In this document: piece after piece, positions 15,392 to 23,657 of the stretch
Layout of the letters: each line of letters opens with the position of its first letter
Numbering within the stretch: position 1 is the stretch's first letter
Source of the DNA: an uncultured Gemmatimonadales bacterium
GTDB taxonomy: Bacteria > Gemmatimonadota > Gemmatimonadetes > Longimicrobiales > Gaopeijiaceae
Assembly (NCBI GenBank): GCA_963809895.1
Contig: CAWELD010000010.1
Coordinates: 992,001 to 1,056,000, forward strand
DNA length: 64,000 bases
Reading direction: 5' to 3'
Notes under the pieces: generated by a model
Database searches by the model: none
Told to the model about the DNA's origin: nothing
Seen by the model: only the letters and a program-made list of their open reading frames with translations
Program-made: the position numbers and the translations under genes

Positions 15392-15470
15392 GGAAGACGT
15401 GGCCGCCTCGGCCCGGGCGAGTGCCCTGGCCGGCGCCGCGGGGTCGAAGGACCGCGCCACGCTCCGGCGA

Positions 15471-15585
15471 CTCATCTCTCGGCGACCGTTTCCGGTCCCG
15501 CAGGAGTTGGCACCACTCGAAGGGTCACCACCCTCGAAGGTTGCCCCGGCGTCTTCGGGCCTGTCCCTCAGCCGGTCTCGATGAG
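15471..15585 (-). ncRNA. SAM-I (S-box) riboswitch
   Basis: Minus strand reads CTCATCGAGACCGGCTGAGGGACAGGCCCGAAGACGCCGGGGCAACC...GGTGCCAACTCCTGC...GAGAGATGAG, a canonical S-box core with P1 CTCATC/GATGAG; upstream of met genes. Confidence 0.93.
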
Positions 15586-15593
15586 GCGGAAGG

Positions 15594-15653: not shown

Positions 15654-16112
15654 GTACTTCTGTGCGCCGACGGGCTGAGTAATGGTGCCGTCGCGGAGGA
15701 CGGTCTGGAAAGCCACGCACCATCGGCGACGACGAGGTCATGGCACTCCTGCAGAAGACGCTGGAGACCGACCCTCCGGACGGCAGTACGCACTGGAGCT
15801 GCCGGTCCATGGCCAAGGCCACCGATCTATCGAAGTCCACGGTTCAACGCATCTGGTCGGCGTTCAACGTCCAGCCCCATCGGCAGAAGACCTTCAAGCT
15901 GTCCACCGATCCGTTCCTTGTCGAAAAGGTCCACGACATCGTTGCCATCCGCCGCGGGCTCCTTCTCCTCGGTCCAGCAGCTCGTCGACAAGATCCGCCG
16001 TTTCACCGACGCTACAATCCCCAGGCCGTCCCCTTCATGTGGACCGCAACCGCCGACTCCATCATCCAGAAGCTCGAACGACTTTGTCAGGCTATCTCTG
16101 GAACAGGACACT
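15654..16112 (+). mobile_element. IS630-family remnant, copy 1 (internally deleted, 5' truncated)
   Basis: THWSCRSMA, STVQRIW, FKLSTDPF then a jump to PFMWTATADSI..ISGTGH; DDE domain missing; appears identical to 19025-19483. Confidence 0.88.
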
Positions 16113-16327: not shown

Positions 16328-16702
16328 CTACCGATCAGCCTCCGCCACTGAGACAGGTCGTGTAATCAGCGCGCCTCCTATTCCCACGTCGAGCGCGGCC
16401 ACAACCGCGAATCCTCGTTCTGGACATCCGTCGAGTATACCTGCTGGAAGACCTACCTCACTGAGAGCTACCACACCGCCTCCGCTACATTCGACTTCGC
16501 CGCATGATGAGGTCGTCGCGGTACATGAGAATTCGCCTTCCCCCTCTTCTACGGTAACACAGCCGTGTCCGACAACATCACCATTCTCATTAGTGACGTT
16601 GGCACACTTCTTCTCGCAATACTGCGCCTCGAGCCGATGCGGGAGCAGGGCTGCCGATCCCAAGACGGCCAGTATGAGTAACACTCGTCGAAGCATGTTC
16701 AT
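16328..16702 (-). CDS. Small secreted Cys-rich protein A (124 aa, unknown family)
   Basis: Signal peptide ending LEA-Q; 7 Cys in the mature part; ATGA overlap with the propeller gene; paralog of 17723-18109. Confidence 0.8.
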   Translation of the reverse strand: MNMLRRVLLILAVLGSAALLPHRLEAQYCEKKCANVTNENGDVVGHGCVTVEEGEGEFSCTATTSSCGEVECSGGGVVALSEVGLPAGILDGCPERGFAVVAALDVGIGGALITRPVSVAEADR

Positions 16703-17748
16703 CCTCCCGAAATGAGTGAATAGGGTACTCTGTCAAAGGTTGGTGCCAACTTTTCTTCGGCCGCGACCCACAGGATCTGGCGCACTGAGTCCACCGCCGC
16801 CACGCTCTTCCACTCCGATGGTATGGGCTGGGATTCCAGGAGCCGGCCGTCAGGCGACCACAAGTCCAGAGACCGCTCACTGCCACGCGTATGTCCTGCC
16901 AACAACCATCCGTCTCCGACAGCGCGAGCCGTATGTGGCCTCAGCACCGGAACATCCAAGGTCTTATATGTCACTCGGTTTCCATCCACTTCTCTACTGA
17001 ATGCATCCTCAGGTCGGAATTCGGAAACCATCCTACTCTTCCATGTGGCGCTGGTGGTACCCTCCTCGGAAAGGACAACGATCTCGTAGGGCAACCGGCG
17101 CGTGTACACCAAGTGATCATCCCCAAGCTTGGTAAGGCCGCCCATGCCCCAGCGATCCAGCACCCAGTCAACAGCCACCTCCGGGGGTTCACCGAAAGAT
17201 CCTTGGTATCTAAGATGATCATTGAAGAGATGGATCGCGTGAGCAGTGCCTGAATCCCCCCATCTCGTCACACCGGCAATGGCGACCCCTCCCCCCGACA
17301 GTGGCACAATTCCGTCAACCTGCCGGAACCGAAAAGGGAGTCTCAACCGAGGTATGTCGTCAGTGGAGTCTGAGAATATCGTGAAATCCTGACGCTGAAG
17401 GTCGAACGCCCACAGGCGCTCCTCCCCATCGAAGGCGATACGGTAGAGGAGTTGAAACTCCCCAGGGCCATCGCCTTTTCCGCCGAATCGTCGGACTTCG
17501 TGACCACGGGCGTCCAGCTCGACCAACTCATTTGTTGCCATGTCTGCCACTATCAGCCCGCCGGCACGGGTCAAAGCGGTGGCAACGGGGATCCCGAGCT
17601 CAACGGCGGGATCGATCGGTACAGGCGTGCCCAGCTGAAGGATCGTGCTCTCTCGACCGCGTGCCGCTGAACCGAGGCCGGCGATGCAGAGGCAGAGCAC
17701 AACCCCTCGGGAACGCCACGGGCTACTTCGTTTCATCTTGCGCGGCAT
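16699..17748 (-). CDS. Exported 6-bladed beta-propeller (NHL-like) protein
   Basis: N-terminal hydrophobic segment; GLIVAD..., RRFGGKGDGPGEF, LWAFD blade motifs. Start 17748 or 17736. Confidence 0.75.
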   Translation of the reverse strand: MPRKMKRSSPWRSRGVVLCLCIAGLGSAARGRESTILQLGTPVPIDPAVELGIPVATALTRAGGLIVADMATNELVELDARGHEVRRFGGKGDGPGEFQLLYRIAFDGEERLWAFDLQRQDFTIFSDSTDDIPRLRLPFRFRQVDGIVPLSGGGVAIAGVTRWGDSGTAHAIHLFNDHLRYQGSFGEPPEVAVDWVLDRWGMGGLTKLGDDHLVYTRRLPYEIVVLSEEGTTSATWKSRMVSEFRPEDAFSREVDGNRVTYKTLDVPVLRPHTARAVGDGWLLAGHTRGSERSLDLWSPDGRLLESQPIPSEWKSVAAVDSVRQILWVAAEEKLAPTFDRVPYSLISGG

Positions 17749-18109
17749 GCGATTCAGCTACCCCATCCGGCGCCAGCCATGCGCCCCGTGCCGCATCCCA
17801 GAGAGCGACAATTCTCACCCGACCCGGCTGACACGCGATGACACTCGCGGCAGGTATGCCGTCCGACGCGAGGGCCACTACCAGACCGCAATCCAACTCG
17901 CCCCCGCATTCGTCGACATGGCCCGATTCGGCATAGACCTTACAATTGCGAAGTCCGGACTCTTGCCCGCCAATGCAGGCCGTCCCCACCCGATCACCAT
18001 TTTCGTCCGCTAGGCCTACGCAGGCTTCGCAGTCTTGGGCGGCTAACCCGGCGGCGAACACAGCCGAAATGACCAGCGCCCATCCAAGGACAAACGACGG
18101 TTTCATCAC
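17723..18109 (-). CDS. Small secreted Cys-rich protein B (128 aa, unknown family)
   Basis: GAGGGAGGG RBS; signal peptide ending LAA-Q; 7 Cys aligned with protein A. Confidence 0.8.
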   Translation of the reverse strand: MMKPSFVLGWALVISAVFAAGLAAQDCEACVGLADENGDRVGTACIGGQESGLRNCKVYAESGHVDECGGELDCGLVVALASDGIPAASVIACQPGRVRIVALWDAARGAWLAPDGVAESHAAQDETK

Positions 18110-18157
18110 CCCTCCCTCACATTTGGGTTTACGCAGGTCCCCTCTCTCGAATTCAAG

Positions 18158-18183
18158 TGCGGCGAGAGAGCGAAACGGTTTAC
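18158..18183 (-). promoter_or_regulatory. Candidate ECF-type promoter for the Cys-rich operon
   Basis: GTAAAC-N16-CGCA, resembling AAAC-N16-CGT ECF promoters. Confidence 0.3.
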
Positions 18184-18191
18184 CTTTGTCA

Positions 18192-18712
18192 CTACTCGTT
18201 TCCTGATCGCACAGCCAGCTTGGTTCTTTTCAGGCGCGCCAAACCGCGATGCATGGAGGCCTTGATAGTGCCCTCAGCCCGCCCCAACACTCGTGCGGTG
18301 TCCTTGACAGAGAGTCCATCGATGATCCTCAACTGGATCACCCTGCGCTGTAACTCCGGCAGCCCCGCCAACAGCCGAGCGACGTCCGAAGCGTCCGTCA
18401 TCGTTGCGGGGGATATCCTCCCGTGGCCTAACCGGAAGAGTTGATGAAGAAGCTTCTTGCGTCGCGTGCGCTTCCGCCGCGCCGCCATTCCAACACGGTG
18501 GGCGATCCGCACTAGCCAGGCTTTCGGCCTCCGGGGGGGGGGGAGGCCTTCTCAAGCGCAATAACCCAGACTTCCTGAACGAGGTCCCCCACCTCAAGAT
18601 AGCCACCGGCGTACGGGAGGAGGACGCGCCTCAGAGCCTCGCCGTGAGCCCTGGCCCATGCGCTAACTCTGTTCTGGGCGGTGGGAGACGGAGTGGTGGC
18701 AGGAGATGACAC
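18192..18712 (-). pseudogene. ECF sigma-70 factor, frameshifted at a G11/C11 tract (18533-18543)
   Basis: Region 2 (DLVQEVWVIAL) is in one frame; AWLVRIA and region 4 (LPELQRRVIQL..GLSVKDTARVLGRAEGTIKASMHRG) are in another. C12 or C9 restores the frame. Start uncertain. Confidence 0.85.
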
Positions 18713-18862
18713 ATCTTGCGGAGTTGAGCCAGACCGCCCCTCAGCGTCGCATGGCCCAAGCGCATCAAGAGGCCCGGTACTCGATCCCATCGGCGCCACT
18801 CATGTCGCTGAAAGGTGCAAAGCTACCGCCACCTTCGCGCGGCCCTAGGGGGGGAGATTCAC

Positions 18863-18891: not shown

Positions 18892-18958
18892 CCGCGGACC
18901 CGACGGGCAGAATCCCAACACTTCTGACCGACCACATGGGTAACGGCCACAGGATACT

Positions 18959-19485
18959 ATGGAGCTCGAATCCTTGGCACGCTCGCGCAGTTTGCCCGCG
19001 GGTCTCGTGCGCCGCGCCAAGACCGTACTTCTGTGCGCCGACGGGCTGAGTAATGGTGCCGTCGCGGAGGACGGTCTGGAAAGCCACGCACCATCGGCGA
19101 CGACGAGGTCATGGCACTCCTGCAGAAGACGCTGGAGACCGACCCTCCGGACGGCAGTACGCACTGGAGCTGCCGGTCCATGGCCAAGGCCACCGATCTA
19201 TCGAAGTCCACGGTTCAACGCATCTGGTCGGCGTTCAACGTCCAGCCCCATCGGCAGAAGACCTTCAAGCTGTCCACCGATCCGTTCCTTGTCGAAAAGG
19301 TCCACGACATCGTTGCCATCCGCCGCGGGCTCCTTCTCCTCGGTCCAGCAGCTCGTCGACAAGATCCGCCGTTTCACCGACGCTACAATCCCCAGGCCGT
19401 CCCCTTCATGTGGACCGCAACCGCCGACTCCATCATCCAGAAGCTCGAACGACTTTGTCAGGCTATCTCTGGAACAGGACACTAG
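18959..19485 (+). mobile_element. IS630-family remnant, copy 2 (internally deleted)
   Basis: LESLARSRSLPAGLVRRAKTVLLCADG N-terminus; same deletion as copy 1; ends GGAACAGGACAC-TA. Confidence 0.88.
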
Positions 19486-20983
19486 GAGCCTGTCCGAGTA
19501 ATCGTCCCGGGTCGTAATATTCTGCGACCTTGGACGAGGAGACAGGCGGAGTGGCAAAGACGTTCCGAGAGTATAGTCCAGACCAGTTGCTGTTGCTGGC
19601 GCCGTCGCTTCGGGAGTGGCTGCCCGAAGACCATTCGGTCTACTTCGTATCGGACCTGGTGGAGACGCTGGACCTGAGCGCGATCTACGCGAGTTACGAC
19701 GAAGAGCGCGGCTACCCGCCGTATCATCCGCTGCTCATGACGAAGTTGCTGGTCTATGGCTACACGCGAGGGGTGGGGAGTTCGAGGAAGCTGGAGCGGG
19801 CGTGCCTGGAGGCCGTGGACTTCCGGATCCTGGGGCAGGTCAACAGCCGGACCACCGGACGATCTCCGCGTTCCGGGCGCGACATCTGGCGGCGCTGGGC
19901 GGGCTGTTTCAGCAGGTGTTGGAGCTTTGCCGAGCGGCGGGGCTGGTGAAGCTGGGCCACGTGGCCATCGACGGGACGAAGGTCCGGGCGAACGCGAGCA
20001 AACACAAGGCGATGAGCTACGGCCGGATGAAGCAGGAGGAGGCGCGCCAGCGGGAGAAGATCCGGCGGTGGTTCGAGGAGTGCGAGGCGACGGACGCCGC
20101 CGAAGACGCGCTGTACGGAGCGGACAAGACGGGCGACGAACTGCCCGAGGAGCTCCGGGATCCGAAGCGGCGGCTGGAGAAGATCCGCGAAGCGAAAGCG
20201 GCCCTGGAAGCGGAAGCGCGGGCCAAGGGCAGGAAGGAACCGGAGGCGAAGGCCCAGCGCAACTTCACGGATCCGGACAGCCGCATCATGCTGTCGAGCG
20301 ACAAGGCGTTCATCCAGGCCTACAAGTGTCAGGCGGCAGTGGATGCGGGCTCGCAGGTGATCGTGGCGGCCGATGTGATCCAGGCGGCGACGGACCACCG
20401 GCAACTGATGCCGCTGCTGGAGCAGATCGAGGAGCGCTTGGGCGACAAACCCGAGGTGGCAAGCGCGGACGCGGGCTACTGGGTGGAAGAAGAACTGGAG
20501 CGAGTTGAGGCCAAAGGAACCGAAGCGCTGGTGGCGCCGAACAAGATCCGTCACAGCGAGTGGAGAGACGCAGAGCCGCCACGGGGCCGTACCCCGAAGG
20601 GCCTCAGCCGCAAGGAGCTGATGGCTCGTAAGCTGAGGACGAAGCGGGGCCGTGAAGAATACGGAAAACGCAAGACAACGGTCGAACCTGTCTTCGGACA
20701 GCTCAAAGGACCCCTGGACTTCCGGCAGTTCCTCCTGCGAGGCCATCAGAAGGTGAGCGGCGAGTGGATGCTCGTCTGCACCGCCAGCAACATCTTGAAG
20801 CTATTCCGGGCTGGGGCGCTGATTCCGGCCCTCGAAATGGCCTGATGGGGGTGGGAACCGTGCGACCTGCTACCAAATCGCGTTCATGAACCCGCACCCA
20901 CCCTCGAAATCCCGATGAACCAGCCTGATCGACCACCATCACGCCCCGCCACCTGCCCCTGGTCCATTACTCGGACAGGCTCC
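19485..20983 (+). mobile_element. IS1182-family insertion sequence
   Basis: Perfect 18-bp terminal IR GGAGCCTGTCCGAGTAAT / ATTACTCGGACAGGCTCC, with TA outside each end. Confidence 0.92.
19551..20845 (+). CDS. IS1182 transposase, one frameshift near 19832-19835
   Basis: GYPPYHP..M.KLLVYGY, SSRKLE, PDHRTIS, AIDGTK, NFTDPDSRIM, ADAGY, VEPVFG; a G4 run needs to be G5. Confidence 0.9.
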
Positions 20984-23657
20984 TATTCCGCCCGGAGCGA
21001 GATCGCAGGGTCCACCGCGGTGGCGCGCCGGGCGGGCACGTAGCACGCCAGGGCGGCCACTCCCGCCAACAACGCCACCACCGCTGCCAGGGTGGGCGGA
21101 TCGGTGGGCGCGATCCCGTACAGCAGCGCTCCCAGCGTTCCGGCGGCCAGGAGTGCCCCGGCGAGCCCCACCACCAGGCCCACGGCCACCACGAACATCC
21201 CCTGGAAGAGAATCATGCGCAGCACCTGGCGACCGCCGGCGCCCAGCGCCATGCGGATCCCGATCTCCTGCGTGCGCTTGCGCGCGGCCTGGGCCGTGAC
21301 CCCGTAGATACCCACCGCCGCGAGCAGGAGGGCCATGGCCCCGAACGCGCCCATGAGGGTGAGCAGGAACTCCTCGTCGGCCATGGATGCCCGCCAGACG
21401 TCGTGCATGGGCTTCATGTCGGCGATGGGAATCAACGGATCGATCTCGTGCAGCACGGCCCGCACCGTGGGGATGGCGCTGGCTCCGGAGCCCTCGGTCC
21501 CGACTACGTACCACATGGTCCGGGACCAGTCCTGGCGGCGGCTCTCGAAGACCTCGGCGCGCGGGGCCTCCGCGGGGTTCTCCTGGGCCTGATCGCCCAC
21601 GATGCCGATGATCTCGTGCCAGGTGGACTCCGGCGTGGCCTGCCGGTCGTAAGCGATCCGCTGGCCGATGGGGTCCTCGCCGGGAAAGTGCTGCCGCGCG
21701 AACGTCTCGTTCACCACGACCACCAGCGGTGACTCCGGGCCGTCATCGGGACCGAAGAGGCGCCCTCGGATCACCGGTATGTCCAGTGTCGCGAAATATC
21801 CGGGATCGACCTGTCGGTGCAGGATGTCGAACCCGATCCGGTCGGGAGGCCAGCCCTCGGCCTGGAACTGGCTGGACCAGCTCGCACCTGCCAGGGGAAG
21901 CTGGTTGACGATGCCCACGTTCTCGATCCCCGGGCGCGCCTCCAGCCGGCGCTCGAAATCGTCCTGGAAGGCCAGCACCTGATCGCGGTTCTCGTATCGG
22001 GCCGACGGGATCCCGAACTGCAGTGCGAGCACTCCTGAGGTACGGAAGCCGGGGTCCACGCTACGGAGCAGCCAGAAGCTCCGCACCATGAGGCCCGAGC
22101 CCACGACGATGAGCACGGCGAGGGCGACCTCCACGGCCACCAGCGTGCTCACGGTGCGTGTGCCCGTCCGCACCGCGGAGCCGCCGCGGCCCCCGTCCTT
22201 GAGGGCGTCGTGGACCCGCCCCGCCGCCGTGCGCCAGGCCGGGGCGGCGCCGAAGATCAGCCCGCTGAGAACGGCGGTGGCACGCCGTGAACAGCCACCA
22301 CGCGCCAGTCCAGCGTCAGGGTCGTGGCGCCCTCGATGCCCATTGTGCGCTTCGATGCCAGCATCTGGATGCCGAGCCACCCCAACCCCAGCCCGACCAC
22401 GCCACCCACCGAGGCGAGCAGGAGGCCCTCCGTGAGCATCTGGCGCGCGACCCGGGCGCGGCCCGCGCCCAGCGCGAAACGCAGCGCGACCTCGCGGGTG
22501 CGGTCGCTGGCCCGCACCAACATGAGATTGGCCACGTTCGTGCACGCCAGCAGGAGGAGGAGCATGACGGCCCCCATGAGCACGGTGAGGGGCCCGCGCA
22601 CCTCCATGGTGAGGAAGGTGCGCAGGGGCATCATGCCGGCGCCCATGACCTTGTTGGTCTCGGGAAAGTCGGTCTGCAGGCGGCGGACCACGGTCTGGAA
22701 GGCGGCATCGGCCTGGCTGGGGGTCACCCCCGGCGCGAGGCGTGCGATGGGACGCACCCAGTGGGCACGGCGGAACCACACGGCCTGGCGGTTTGCCGGA
22801 TCCCACCCCCAGGGCGTCCAGAACTGGATGCCCGACGGAAAGCGCATGCCCGCCGGCGCAACGCCCACGATCTCGGGTGAGGCCGTGGTCAGGTCCAGCG
22901 TCGTGCCCACGACGTCGGGATCGGCACCGAAGTGGGAGACCCAGAAATCGTGGCTCAGCACGATCACGTTGTCGGCACCGCTCCAGGTCTGCTCCCAGCG
23001 GAACCCGCTGCCGAGCTCCATGGGCACGCCCAGCACCGAGAAGAAGTTGCCCGACACCTGCGCGAAGGAGAGCAGCTCCGGCTCGCCGTCCCGGATGTGC
23101 GTGGCCTGGTTCATGAACTCCGAATAGACGGCCACGTCGGAGAATGCGTCGACCTGATCCCGCCAGTCCAGGACGTTGGCCGGGGCCGCGGTCTCATGGA
23201 CCCACCCGAACTCGGGGTTGCTCTCGTAGAGCATCACGAGCCGGTCGGGATTGCCGAACGGAAGCGGCCGGAACAGGTAGGCGTCAGCGGCGGAGAAGAT
23301 CGCGGTATTGGCGCCGATGCCGAGGGCGAGGACCGCCACCGCGGTGAGAGTGAAGCCGGGATTGCGCCGTAGGGTGCGGATCGCGAAGCGGATGTCCTGT
23401 CGCATGCCCTCCATCATCGTTCTTCCTCCTCCCTGCGCGATCTGCCCATGGCGACCCGGCCCGTCCCGGCCGAGGCGTAGCTTCACGATGGTCCACGCCA
23501 ATCCTCCAACCTCGCGCGCCGCGAAGGCCACCCGCCGCGGGGCGGACCGACCCTCCGGGCGCCGGGCACGGTGGACGTCCAGGACCTCCGGCCCGTACCT
23601 CTCCCTGAACTCGCGGGGAGCCAGGCGGAGCAGGAGGCGGAGGAGGGTGGCGGTCAC
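20983..23657 (-). CDS. ADOP-family permease, copy 3 (frameshift near 22270-22300)
   Basis: LALGIGANTAIFS, LACTNVANL, RTQEIGIRMALGA, PARRATAVDP split across two ORF-track frames; GTGA overlap with padR. Confidence 0.9.

Follow-up and report, generated by a model that had tools for sequence, protein, structure and literature searches.

A conserved, unnamed module of seven-cysteine mini-proteins and an NHL-like beta-propeller in Gemmatimonadota

The locus and its two seven-cysteine proteins

The window analyzed here is the whole 64,000-nucleotide stretch of contig CAWELD010000010.1 (positions 992,001 to 1,056,000) from an uncultured Gemmatimonadales bacterium, and positions count from its first letter unless a contig of the genome is named. 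On its minus strand lie, in order, a gene for an extracytoplasmic function (ECF) sigma factor, a small cysteine-rich protein (B), a beta-propeller, and a second small cysteine-rich protein (A). The last three stand at the positions given in a first-pass annotation that had proposed the group as a candidate new secreted system. The two small proteins and the propeller constitute a real, conserved, and unnamed two-component module. Protein A (16328..16702, minus strand; 124 residues) is a seven-cysteine mini-protein whose likely signal peptide extends to around residue 26. Its C29, C33, C48, C60, C67, and C72 belong to a two-hairpin core, in which hairpin 32-46 is the part predicted to dock with the propeller, and the seventh cysteine (C93) lies in a C-terminal beta-meander. 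The propeller (16699..17748, minus strand; 349 residues) is NHL/DUF5128-like and six-bladed, and it belongs to a subclade tied to the seven-cysteine family. Protein B (17723..18109, minus strand; 128 residues) starts at GTG, or at an ATG at 18106; it is paralogous to A, has seven cysteines, and shares A's hairpin. Overlapping start and stop codons had been reported for all three genes; the propeller and A genes do overlap in this way, as ATGA, whereas the overlap between B and the propeller is 26 nucleotides long.

A and B share 35% identity (BLASTP E 4e-10). Their local alignment score of 116 exceeds the maxima from shuffled sequences, 69 with free shuffling and 79 with cysteines fixed, and none of 2000 shuffles of either kind reaches it, in agreement with their proposed status as diverged paralogues. 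The motifs ENGD.VG..C and VVAL are present in both. Each protein has seven cysteines, as claimed, but pairwise alignment with MAFFT matches only six of them; all seven correspond in order only if B is given an insertion of 5 residues (spacings of 3, 14, 11, 6, 4, and 20 in A and 2, 14, 10, 11, 5, and 18 in B). From signal peptides judged by sequence and a hydrophobicity heuristic, we infer that both proteins are exported by Sec and cleaved before Gln. Neither protein reaches the cut-off of any Pfam or NCBIfam family, and matches to ADAM_CR and CooC_C were rejected as sub-threshold and cysteine-driven. The NVEALA profile (PF14055) does not match A, B, or 23 family members at E<=0.1; a whole-genome search for NVEALA, run with no positive control, was likewise empty. 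Three outcomes had been set beforehand as counting against the proposal, namely, a characterized family, similarity at the level of shuffled sequences, and failure to co-occur with propellers, and none of them occurred.

The family, its propeller partner, and predicted docking

A search with A as a single sequence finds only a one-residue variant of it. Single-sequence searches of 60 kin genomes show no true relative, their weak rows not being family members except in G044; 19 same-genus genomes contain no match in such a search, a patchy spread, and the ESM Atlas gives no usable match. A profile built from A and B together, by contrast with the single sequence, reaches relatives within the class. 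Iterated, it matches 14 of 401 phylum genomes, 15 of 401 genomes of another family, and 17 of 301 genomes of the order; in these tallies, a few rows are false or of a related type. Exhaustive profile searching at E<=0.001, as had been suggested for the A/B alignment, yields 266 clusters at 50% identity. Among the best 150 of these clusters, the seven cysteine columns are 97-100% conserved, as are Gly41 (83%), Gly45 (94%), Ala62 (87%), and Gly84 (94%) to lesser degrees. Of 145 full-span rows that are not fusions, 143 have an odd number of cysteines in the mature protein. The locus set gives the same picture, with odd counts in 42 of 43 family members and in 14 of 15 related proteins with seven or nine cysteines. 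The suggestion of an unnamed cysteine-rich family with a conserved odd cysteine count thus holds. Family cores are mostly acidic. Those loci whose records carry a name belong to Gemmatimonadota (Palauibacter, Longimicrobium, and Gemmatimonas); two non-Gemmatimonadota genomes with weak propeller matches contain no family match, a result that is uninformative. Open-access literature, covered as listings and abstract beginnings with supplements excluded, contains no account that we could find of this module, nor any on NVEALA, DUF5128, or cysteine-rich secreted propeller proteins of Gemmatimonadota.

The partner is equally consistent. One propeller subclade adjoins a mini-protein gene at all 35 distinct other loci, the co-occurrence that had been predicted; by route of discovery, this adjacency holds at 26 of 26 loci found from the mini-protein and at 9 of 12 in-clade loci found from the propeller. 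False positives (L029, L030, and L089) were removed before counting, and duplicate loci were merged (L023/040, 024/039/051, 025/036/052, 027/034/053/096, 028/037, 031/035, 038/097, 042/078, 083/093, and 087/094). Related types with seven or nine cysteines were counted separately (L033, L060, L088, L102-110, and L112-114), and the contig-cut loci L026, L068, and L084 were included for adjacency and excluded for cysteine number. At 9 of the 35 loci a single propeller is accompanied by two paralogues, and the merged locus L031/L035 has the same sandwich arrangement as the window. The 57 flanking open reading frames scanned across loci are unrelated housekeeping genes, and the unit is therefore a cassette of two or three genes. 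A 474-residue frame (P0068) that joins a subclade propeller to a seven-cysteine protein was rejected as a fusion, because it retains an internal signal-like stretch; it is probably a stop loss.

The propeller profile matches NHL domains in the PDB at E values down to 8e-34, covering only generic NHL blades, and the propeller chain is modeled at a predicted local distance difference test score (pLDDT) of 89-90 in complex with A; the number of blades is inferred. Its best PDB sequence matches are the NHL-repeat propellers of TRIM2/3/71, Brat, PknD, and PAL, but none of these has a solved partner like A, and no solved complex resembling the pair was found by sequence. DUF5128 (PF17170) scores 15.2 bits against the window propeller, below its cut-off of 22.9; six of eight aligned partner propellers match it weakly at E<=0.01, with a best E of 2.6e-7. 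The window propeller (P0003) has both of its cysteines within a likely signal peptide and, as read from its sequence, no lipobox of the BF3164-like lipoprotein kind; most aligned relatives have an A/V-Q type cleavage site, read in the same way. It has neither a membrane anchor nor a signaling domain. The propeller also has an invariant His173 and a conserved Glu97, both outside the interface described below.

Structure prediction for A from the two-sequence alignment was not used (pLDDT 46.5). With 23 sequences, the monomer model (pLDDT 70.6; predicted template modeling score, pTM, 0.36) shows a hairpin at residues 31-50, a second at 59-70, and a four-stranded C-terminal meander. The fold searches that had been recommended returned nothing significant: Foldseek gives no match at E<=0.001, the best VIA-align hit (Z 3.3, rmsd 3.5, 40 aligned) covers only residues 76-121. 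A search of PDB sequences gives a single hit, at E 0.47. A role for residues 76-122 as a seventh blade was considered and rejected; their likeness to a propeller blade is weak (Z<=3.3), and the region lies outside the predicted interface.

Complex modeling of propeller residues 33-349 with A residues 27-124, also recommended, predicts binding, with a score of 0.71 against 0.02 for the best control. Of 157 solved complexes, 116 attain this mark, compared with 2 of 215 mismatched pairs. The calibration is only roughly valid for the alignments used, and the runs share at least 88% of contacts. Confident contacts of A are confined to residues 32-46 and 49-50. The tip N38-E39-N40-G41 contacts V55/A56, Y102/R103, D145, G201/G203, R270/H272, and V316/A317, with N40 and G41 closest; the predicted pocket comprises these residues and R218. 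We take the contacted residues to mark where the central channel opens. In 41 of 41 seven-cysteine rows, 12-16 residues separate Cys2 from Cys3 in the hairpin, and 36 of 43 rows carry a [DNST]xxG tip. On the propeller side, the pocket positions keep Arg, Tyr, and Gly, including G203 in 24 of 24 and G201 in 23 of 24, rather than the His/Asp/Glu/Asn ligand set of metal-dependent propeller enzymes of the PAL and PON/DFPase types. R103 is kept by 13 of the 15 propellers reached via the mini-protein, versus 10 of 71 other parsed propellers of the genome. The predicted docking therefore fits the conservation of both hairpin and pocket, and the model supports binding.

The conserved odd cysteine count raises the question of which residue is spare. 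In related proteins, the core cysteine count shifts by twos while one C-terminal cysteine is kept, and most short neighbors that lack the C-terminal domain have, as we read them, even counts; we infer from this that Cys7 is the unpaired residue. Of 18 partner propellers, 14 lack cysteine throughout the aligned core and the other 4 have an even count, so a bond between the spare cysteine and the propeller, one of the linkages originally suggested, is unlikely. Variation concentrates elsewhere. B and its orthologue at L064 are 88% identical, keep all seven cysteines, and differ mostly between Cys3 and Cys6, with 7 amino-acid changes in 31 codons there against 2 in 59 across the hairpin plus the C-terminal domain (p 0.007 by Fisher's test, for one pair and with regions picked after viewing). 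Between the window and L064, synonymous codon changes outnumber non-synonymous ones in all three genes. Family-wide, the Cys3-Cys6 loops have the lowest identity (0.12-0.14 versus 0.20-0.22).

The island, the sigma gene, and the wider class

The cassette lies on an island of 58-63% GC, compared with about 69-70% in the flanks and the genome. It is bracketed by two identical 459-bp IS630-family remnants in direct orientation, the left at 15654..16112 (plus strand; 100% identity to the right copy) and the right at 18959..19483 (plus strand), the latter with a short, internally deleted transposase (NF033545, E 1.8e-8). Beyond them lies an IS1182-family element (19483..20985, plus strand), a single genomic copy with 29-nucleotide terminal inverted repeats whose transposase apparently spans two frames, the long open reading frame lacking the N-terminus. 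Low GC, the flanking remnants, and the IS1182 element bear out the proposal of a mobile island. The arrangement resembles an IS630 composite transposon in that identical direct copies bracket the cargo, yet both copies are remnants. A 43-bp piece like an IS630 end (18917-18959) recurs at C3:1058693, right after another cysteine-rich/propeller pair. At the left edge, the island is inserted about 70 bp from a SAM-I riboswitch leader (RF00162, 76.6 bits; 15469-15587, minus strand) that stands 5' of methionine-pathway-like genes.

The first-pass annotation had listed an ECF sigma gene with no anti-sigma beside it. The absence stands, with no anti-sigma gene between the sigma gene and the insertion sequences, but sigma regions 2 and 4 are present out of frame with each other, which that annotation had missed. 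The N-terminal piece (18512..18799, minus strand; Sigma70_r2 E 8.6e-4, below cut-off) runs into a TAG stop after an 11-base C run at 18533..18543 (minus strand, G on the plus strand), where the frame breaks. The C-terminal piece (18192..18539, minus strand) contains the end of region 2 and region 4 (Sigma70_r4_2 E 1.8e-14). The C run is one of three genomic runs of at least 11, apart from one 586-base artefact. Indel errors are visible elsewhere in the assembly, so a consensus error at the run is possible. However, a second contig, of 2929 bp, likewise yields only a 69-residue C-terminal sigma piece, and the one-residue variant of A is encoded on a contig of that same length, which suggests that the break is real. 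The C-terminal part differs from that of L064 by 15 synonymous and 9 non-synonymous codons and is, as judged from these codons, under purifying selection. As a part of the system, the ECF sigma fares poorly. It is broken here and in line at only 2 of the 35 other loci, a lower bound, since the flanks at most loci are only about 1.5 kb long; these are L064, an 88%-identical relative, and L034, where it follows a hybrid kinase. An AraC regulator occurs at L066. A candidate ECF-type promoter 5' of B (18155..18183, minus strand; GTAAAC, an 18-nucleotide spacer, and CACTT) is conserved in L064, and the motif was not found at the other loci searched.

The C run is also a candidate slippage switch. 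Of 18 G/C runs of at least 9, 8 lie within 3 kb of a propeller, a zone that makes up 10% of the genome (p 1.8e-4 for the enrichment). The spacer of a TTG...TAnnnT pattern holds 5 of 95 matches to G runs of at least 8, a total that includes pieces of the 586-base artefact, compared with 7 of 2988 shorter runs; at relatives' loci, 5 of 18 G-run matches lie in such a spacer. Poly-G runs of 9-12 stand between TTG-type and TAnnnT hexamers in the genome of the window (G000) at C3:932525, C3:2642418, C3:3078925, and C6:35222. The same arrangement occurs at L024, L060, L088, L108, and L109, and these sites are mostly 5' of cysteine-rich/propeller loci. The spacers look like those of phase-variable promoters. 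Given the enrichment near propellers and the position within promoter-like spacers, slippage switching of these loci is a reasonable inference. A sigma factor switched in this way would explain the missing anti-sigma, and decay of the gene is a possible alternative to switching.

The window locus is one member of a wider cysteine-rich/propeller class. The genome has 98 propeller-matching frames, or about 95 genes. About ten other propellers adjoin a signal-bearing small protein with 5 or 7 cysteines and a lone C-terminal cysteine, and many have no such neighbor. Nine such small proteins, at C10:521146, C3:661338, 934502, 1056402, 1569122, 2226326, 2631468, and 2644479, and C8:20811, each adjoin a different propeller and form at least two subtypes. 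Propeller genes cluster densely at C3:3250000-3360000 and C10:670000-735000, where a VKOR gene (C3:3319894) and a DsbB-like gene (C10:733989), respectively, lie within the clusters; a DsbA-like gene (C3:1034750) follows a cysteine-rich/propeller pair. That the genome has VKOR and DsbA-like genes, away from the window locus, is a point in favor of the disulfide reading preferred below. The locus at C3:3681535 is a near-identical duplicate of that at C8:20811, and the C3 copy lies at the end of its contig and contains indels, a sign of assembly errors or redundancy. A nine-cysteine type (L102-L107, L112, and L113) has a very short first hairpin. In its propellers, Trp replaces Tyr102 where the motif is seen, and most have two cysteines; hairpin length and pocket residue may co-vary.

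Possible roles of the pair

We tentatively favor, at somewhat less than even confidence, the reading that A and B are exported disulfide mini-proteins that dock by a conserved acidic hairpin in the top pocket of their own propeller, which would serve as a dedicated holder or carrier and leave the loops and spare cysteine facing outward. Sec export and cleavage before Gln would come first. Six cysteines would then form three disulfides in the two-hairpin core, as parity and the model suggest, and the fixed-length hairpin between Cys2 and Cys3, with its D/N-x-x-G tip, would plug the central pocket of the propeller, as predicted for A and assumed for B. The invariant Cys7, on a separate C-terminal hairpin, would remain unpaired in the monomer and would bond another mini-protein (A-A or A-B) or an outside target, not the propeller, and the Cys3-Cys6 loops may confer specificity for the outside partner. 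The two-gene unit would travel as a cassette, here under an accessory ECF sigma that, with its frame broken at the C run, would be switched off or decayed.

The modeled binding mode resembles that of a known propeller complex. The ETGE motif of Nrf2 adopts a hairpin shape. It is bound by the Kelch domain of Keap1 (PMC4506958), and the likeness is that in our model an acidic turn enters an Arg-lined pocket at the top of a six-bladed propeller. This is an analogy only, since the present system differs in being NHL-like rather than Kelch, in being extracytoplasmic, in having a disulfide-braced ligand, and in having no ubiquitin pathway.

Several observations weigh against the holder or carrier reading. 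Binding of A to the propeller is a model prediction rather than a measurement, the score behind it is calibrated only roughly, and A itself has a pLDDT of 42-47 in the complex, which leaves its fold uncertain. The R103 contrast is drawn between kin groups and is not an independent test. Distances within A and propeller families co-diverge weakly and without significance (Mantel rho 0.16, a value reached by 365 of 5000 permutations). Three of the 12 propeller-first loci (L043, L067, and L074) show no mini-protein, and one protein (L059:968) has six cysteines, with Cys5 missing. Cys7 is only the probable free cysteine, and the monomer model has a pTM of only 0.36. Finally, the present data do not tell a holder or carrier apart from an inhibitor or from an enzyme-substrate pair.

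Propeller active sites usually lie on the face that is predicted here to hold the hairpin. If the hairpin fills such a site, the propeller could be the exported protein that acts, whether by catalysis or by binding, and A and B would plug it as inhibitors or regulators, duplicated in the manner of immunity genes. Such duplication would match the tandem small paralogues beside one larger gene at 9 of the 35 other loci, and an independent activity would suit a genome with about 95 propellers, many without a small neighbor. However, the pocket positions themselves show no conserved metal or catalytic set (D145 in 12 of 24, H272 in 3 of 24), although His173 and Glu97 are conserved outside the interface, and inhibition leaves the invariant odd cysteine and the variable loops off the interface unexplained. 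We regard this alternative as unlikely, though it is the one that survives best.

The closeness of N40 and G41 to the pocket also fits a maturation enzyme whose substrate is the Asn/Asp-Gly hairpin tip, the two forming a peptide-modifying or methylamine-dehydrogenase-like pair. Peptidylglycine alpha-amidating monooxygenase points the same way: its PAL domain weakly matches the propeller profile, over one NHL stretch, at E 8.8e-7. The tip varies, however, with N at position 40 in 6 of 23, and the 57 flanking open reading frames include no conserved tailoring enzyme, protease, or transporter. In methylamine dehydrogenase (MauA/MauB), a small disulfide-rich exported subunit likewise pairs with a propeller, which is seven-bladed. 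That likeness goes no further. The small subunit of that enzyme has two conserved Trp for its tryptophan tryptophylquinone cofactor; A has no Trp, which excludes a cofactor of this type for it, and Trp is not conserved in the family, whose cores have 0 to 5. No mau genes occur in the 57 flanking frames, no MauD/E/G genes occur in the loci scanned, and the 47 PDB matches of the propeller profile include no methylamine dehydrogenase. These findings make a maturase role rather doubtful.

The in-line ECF sigma genes here, at L064, and at L034 behind its hybrid kinase, together with the AraC regulator at L066, could instead mean that A and B act as diffusible peptide signals, sensed by the propeller as a soluble receptor whose output goes to an ECF or two-component circuit. 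This is improbable. Regulators are not conserved across loci (ECF in line at 2 of 35, with most flanks about 1.5 kb), the propeller has no membrane anchor or signaling domain, and the predicted receptor contact falls on the conserved part of the mini-protein, not on its variable part. Equally hard to sustain is an antimicrobial role for A and B with the propeller as immunity protein, which the low-GC mobile island, the patchy spread (0 of 19 same-genus genomes), the variable loops, and the defensin-like size would suit, because the cores are mostly acidic and one-to-one immunity fits poorly with a predicted contact that is the most conserved part and with single propellers that sit beside two diverged paralogues at 9 of 35 other loci, here a pair of 35% identity that would dock through a common motif.

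A bolder extension of the holder or carrier reading is a venom-like mini-protein library of Gemmatimonadota, in which a constant hairpin handle, able to load any family member onto a dedicated propeller carrier, is combined with hypervariable loops and a universal spare cysteine for covalent coupling to a partner or target, and in which the loci are mobile and switched at poly-G/C runs. It jointly claims slippage in promoter spacers or, in the window, inside an ECF sigma gene that needs no anti-sigma, and we consider it speculative and unlikely to hold in full.

The nearest comparison is with Bacteroidota, in which small NVEALA (PF14055) proteins adjoin six-bladed propellers of the DUF5128, TolB_like, or BF3164 kind. 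As in those neighborhoods, a small cysteine-containing exported protein stands beside a six-bladed propeller, and six of eight partner propellers match DUF5128 weakly. Unlike NVEALA proteins, the A/B family has no NVEALA match and has a fixed seven-cysteine pattern, a C-terminal beta domain, and a home in Gemmatimonadota; its propeller lacks a lipobox, and the cassette lacks a thioredoxin or exporter. By analogy, the module works like the functionally uncharacterized NVEALA/propeller neighborhoods, though its small proteins are not NVEALA members. Genomes of Gemmatimonadota and Bacteroidota abound in unexplained pairs of a small cysteine-rich protein and a six-bladed propeller. The present locus is a compact two-gene version of them, with predictions at the level of residues: the hairpin tip, R103, G203, and the invariant spare cysteine. 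If the holder or carrier reading is true, it would provide the first molecular relationship for a large orphan class and would add to the disulfide mini-protein scaffolds a bacterial one that comes with a dedicated carrier.

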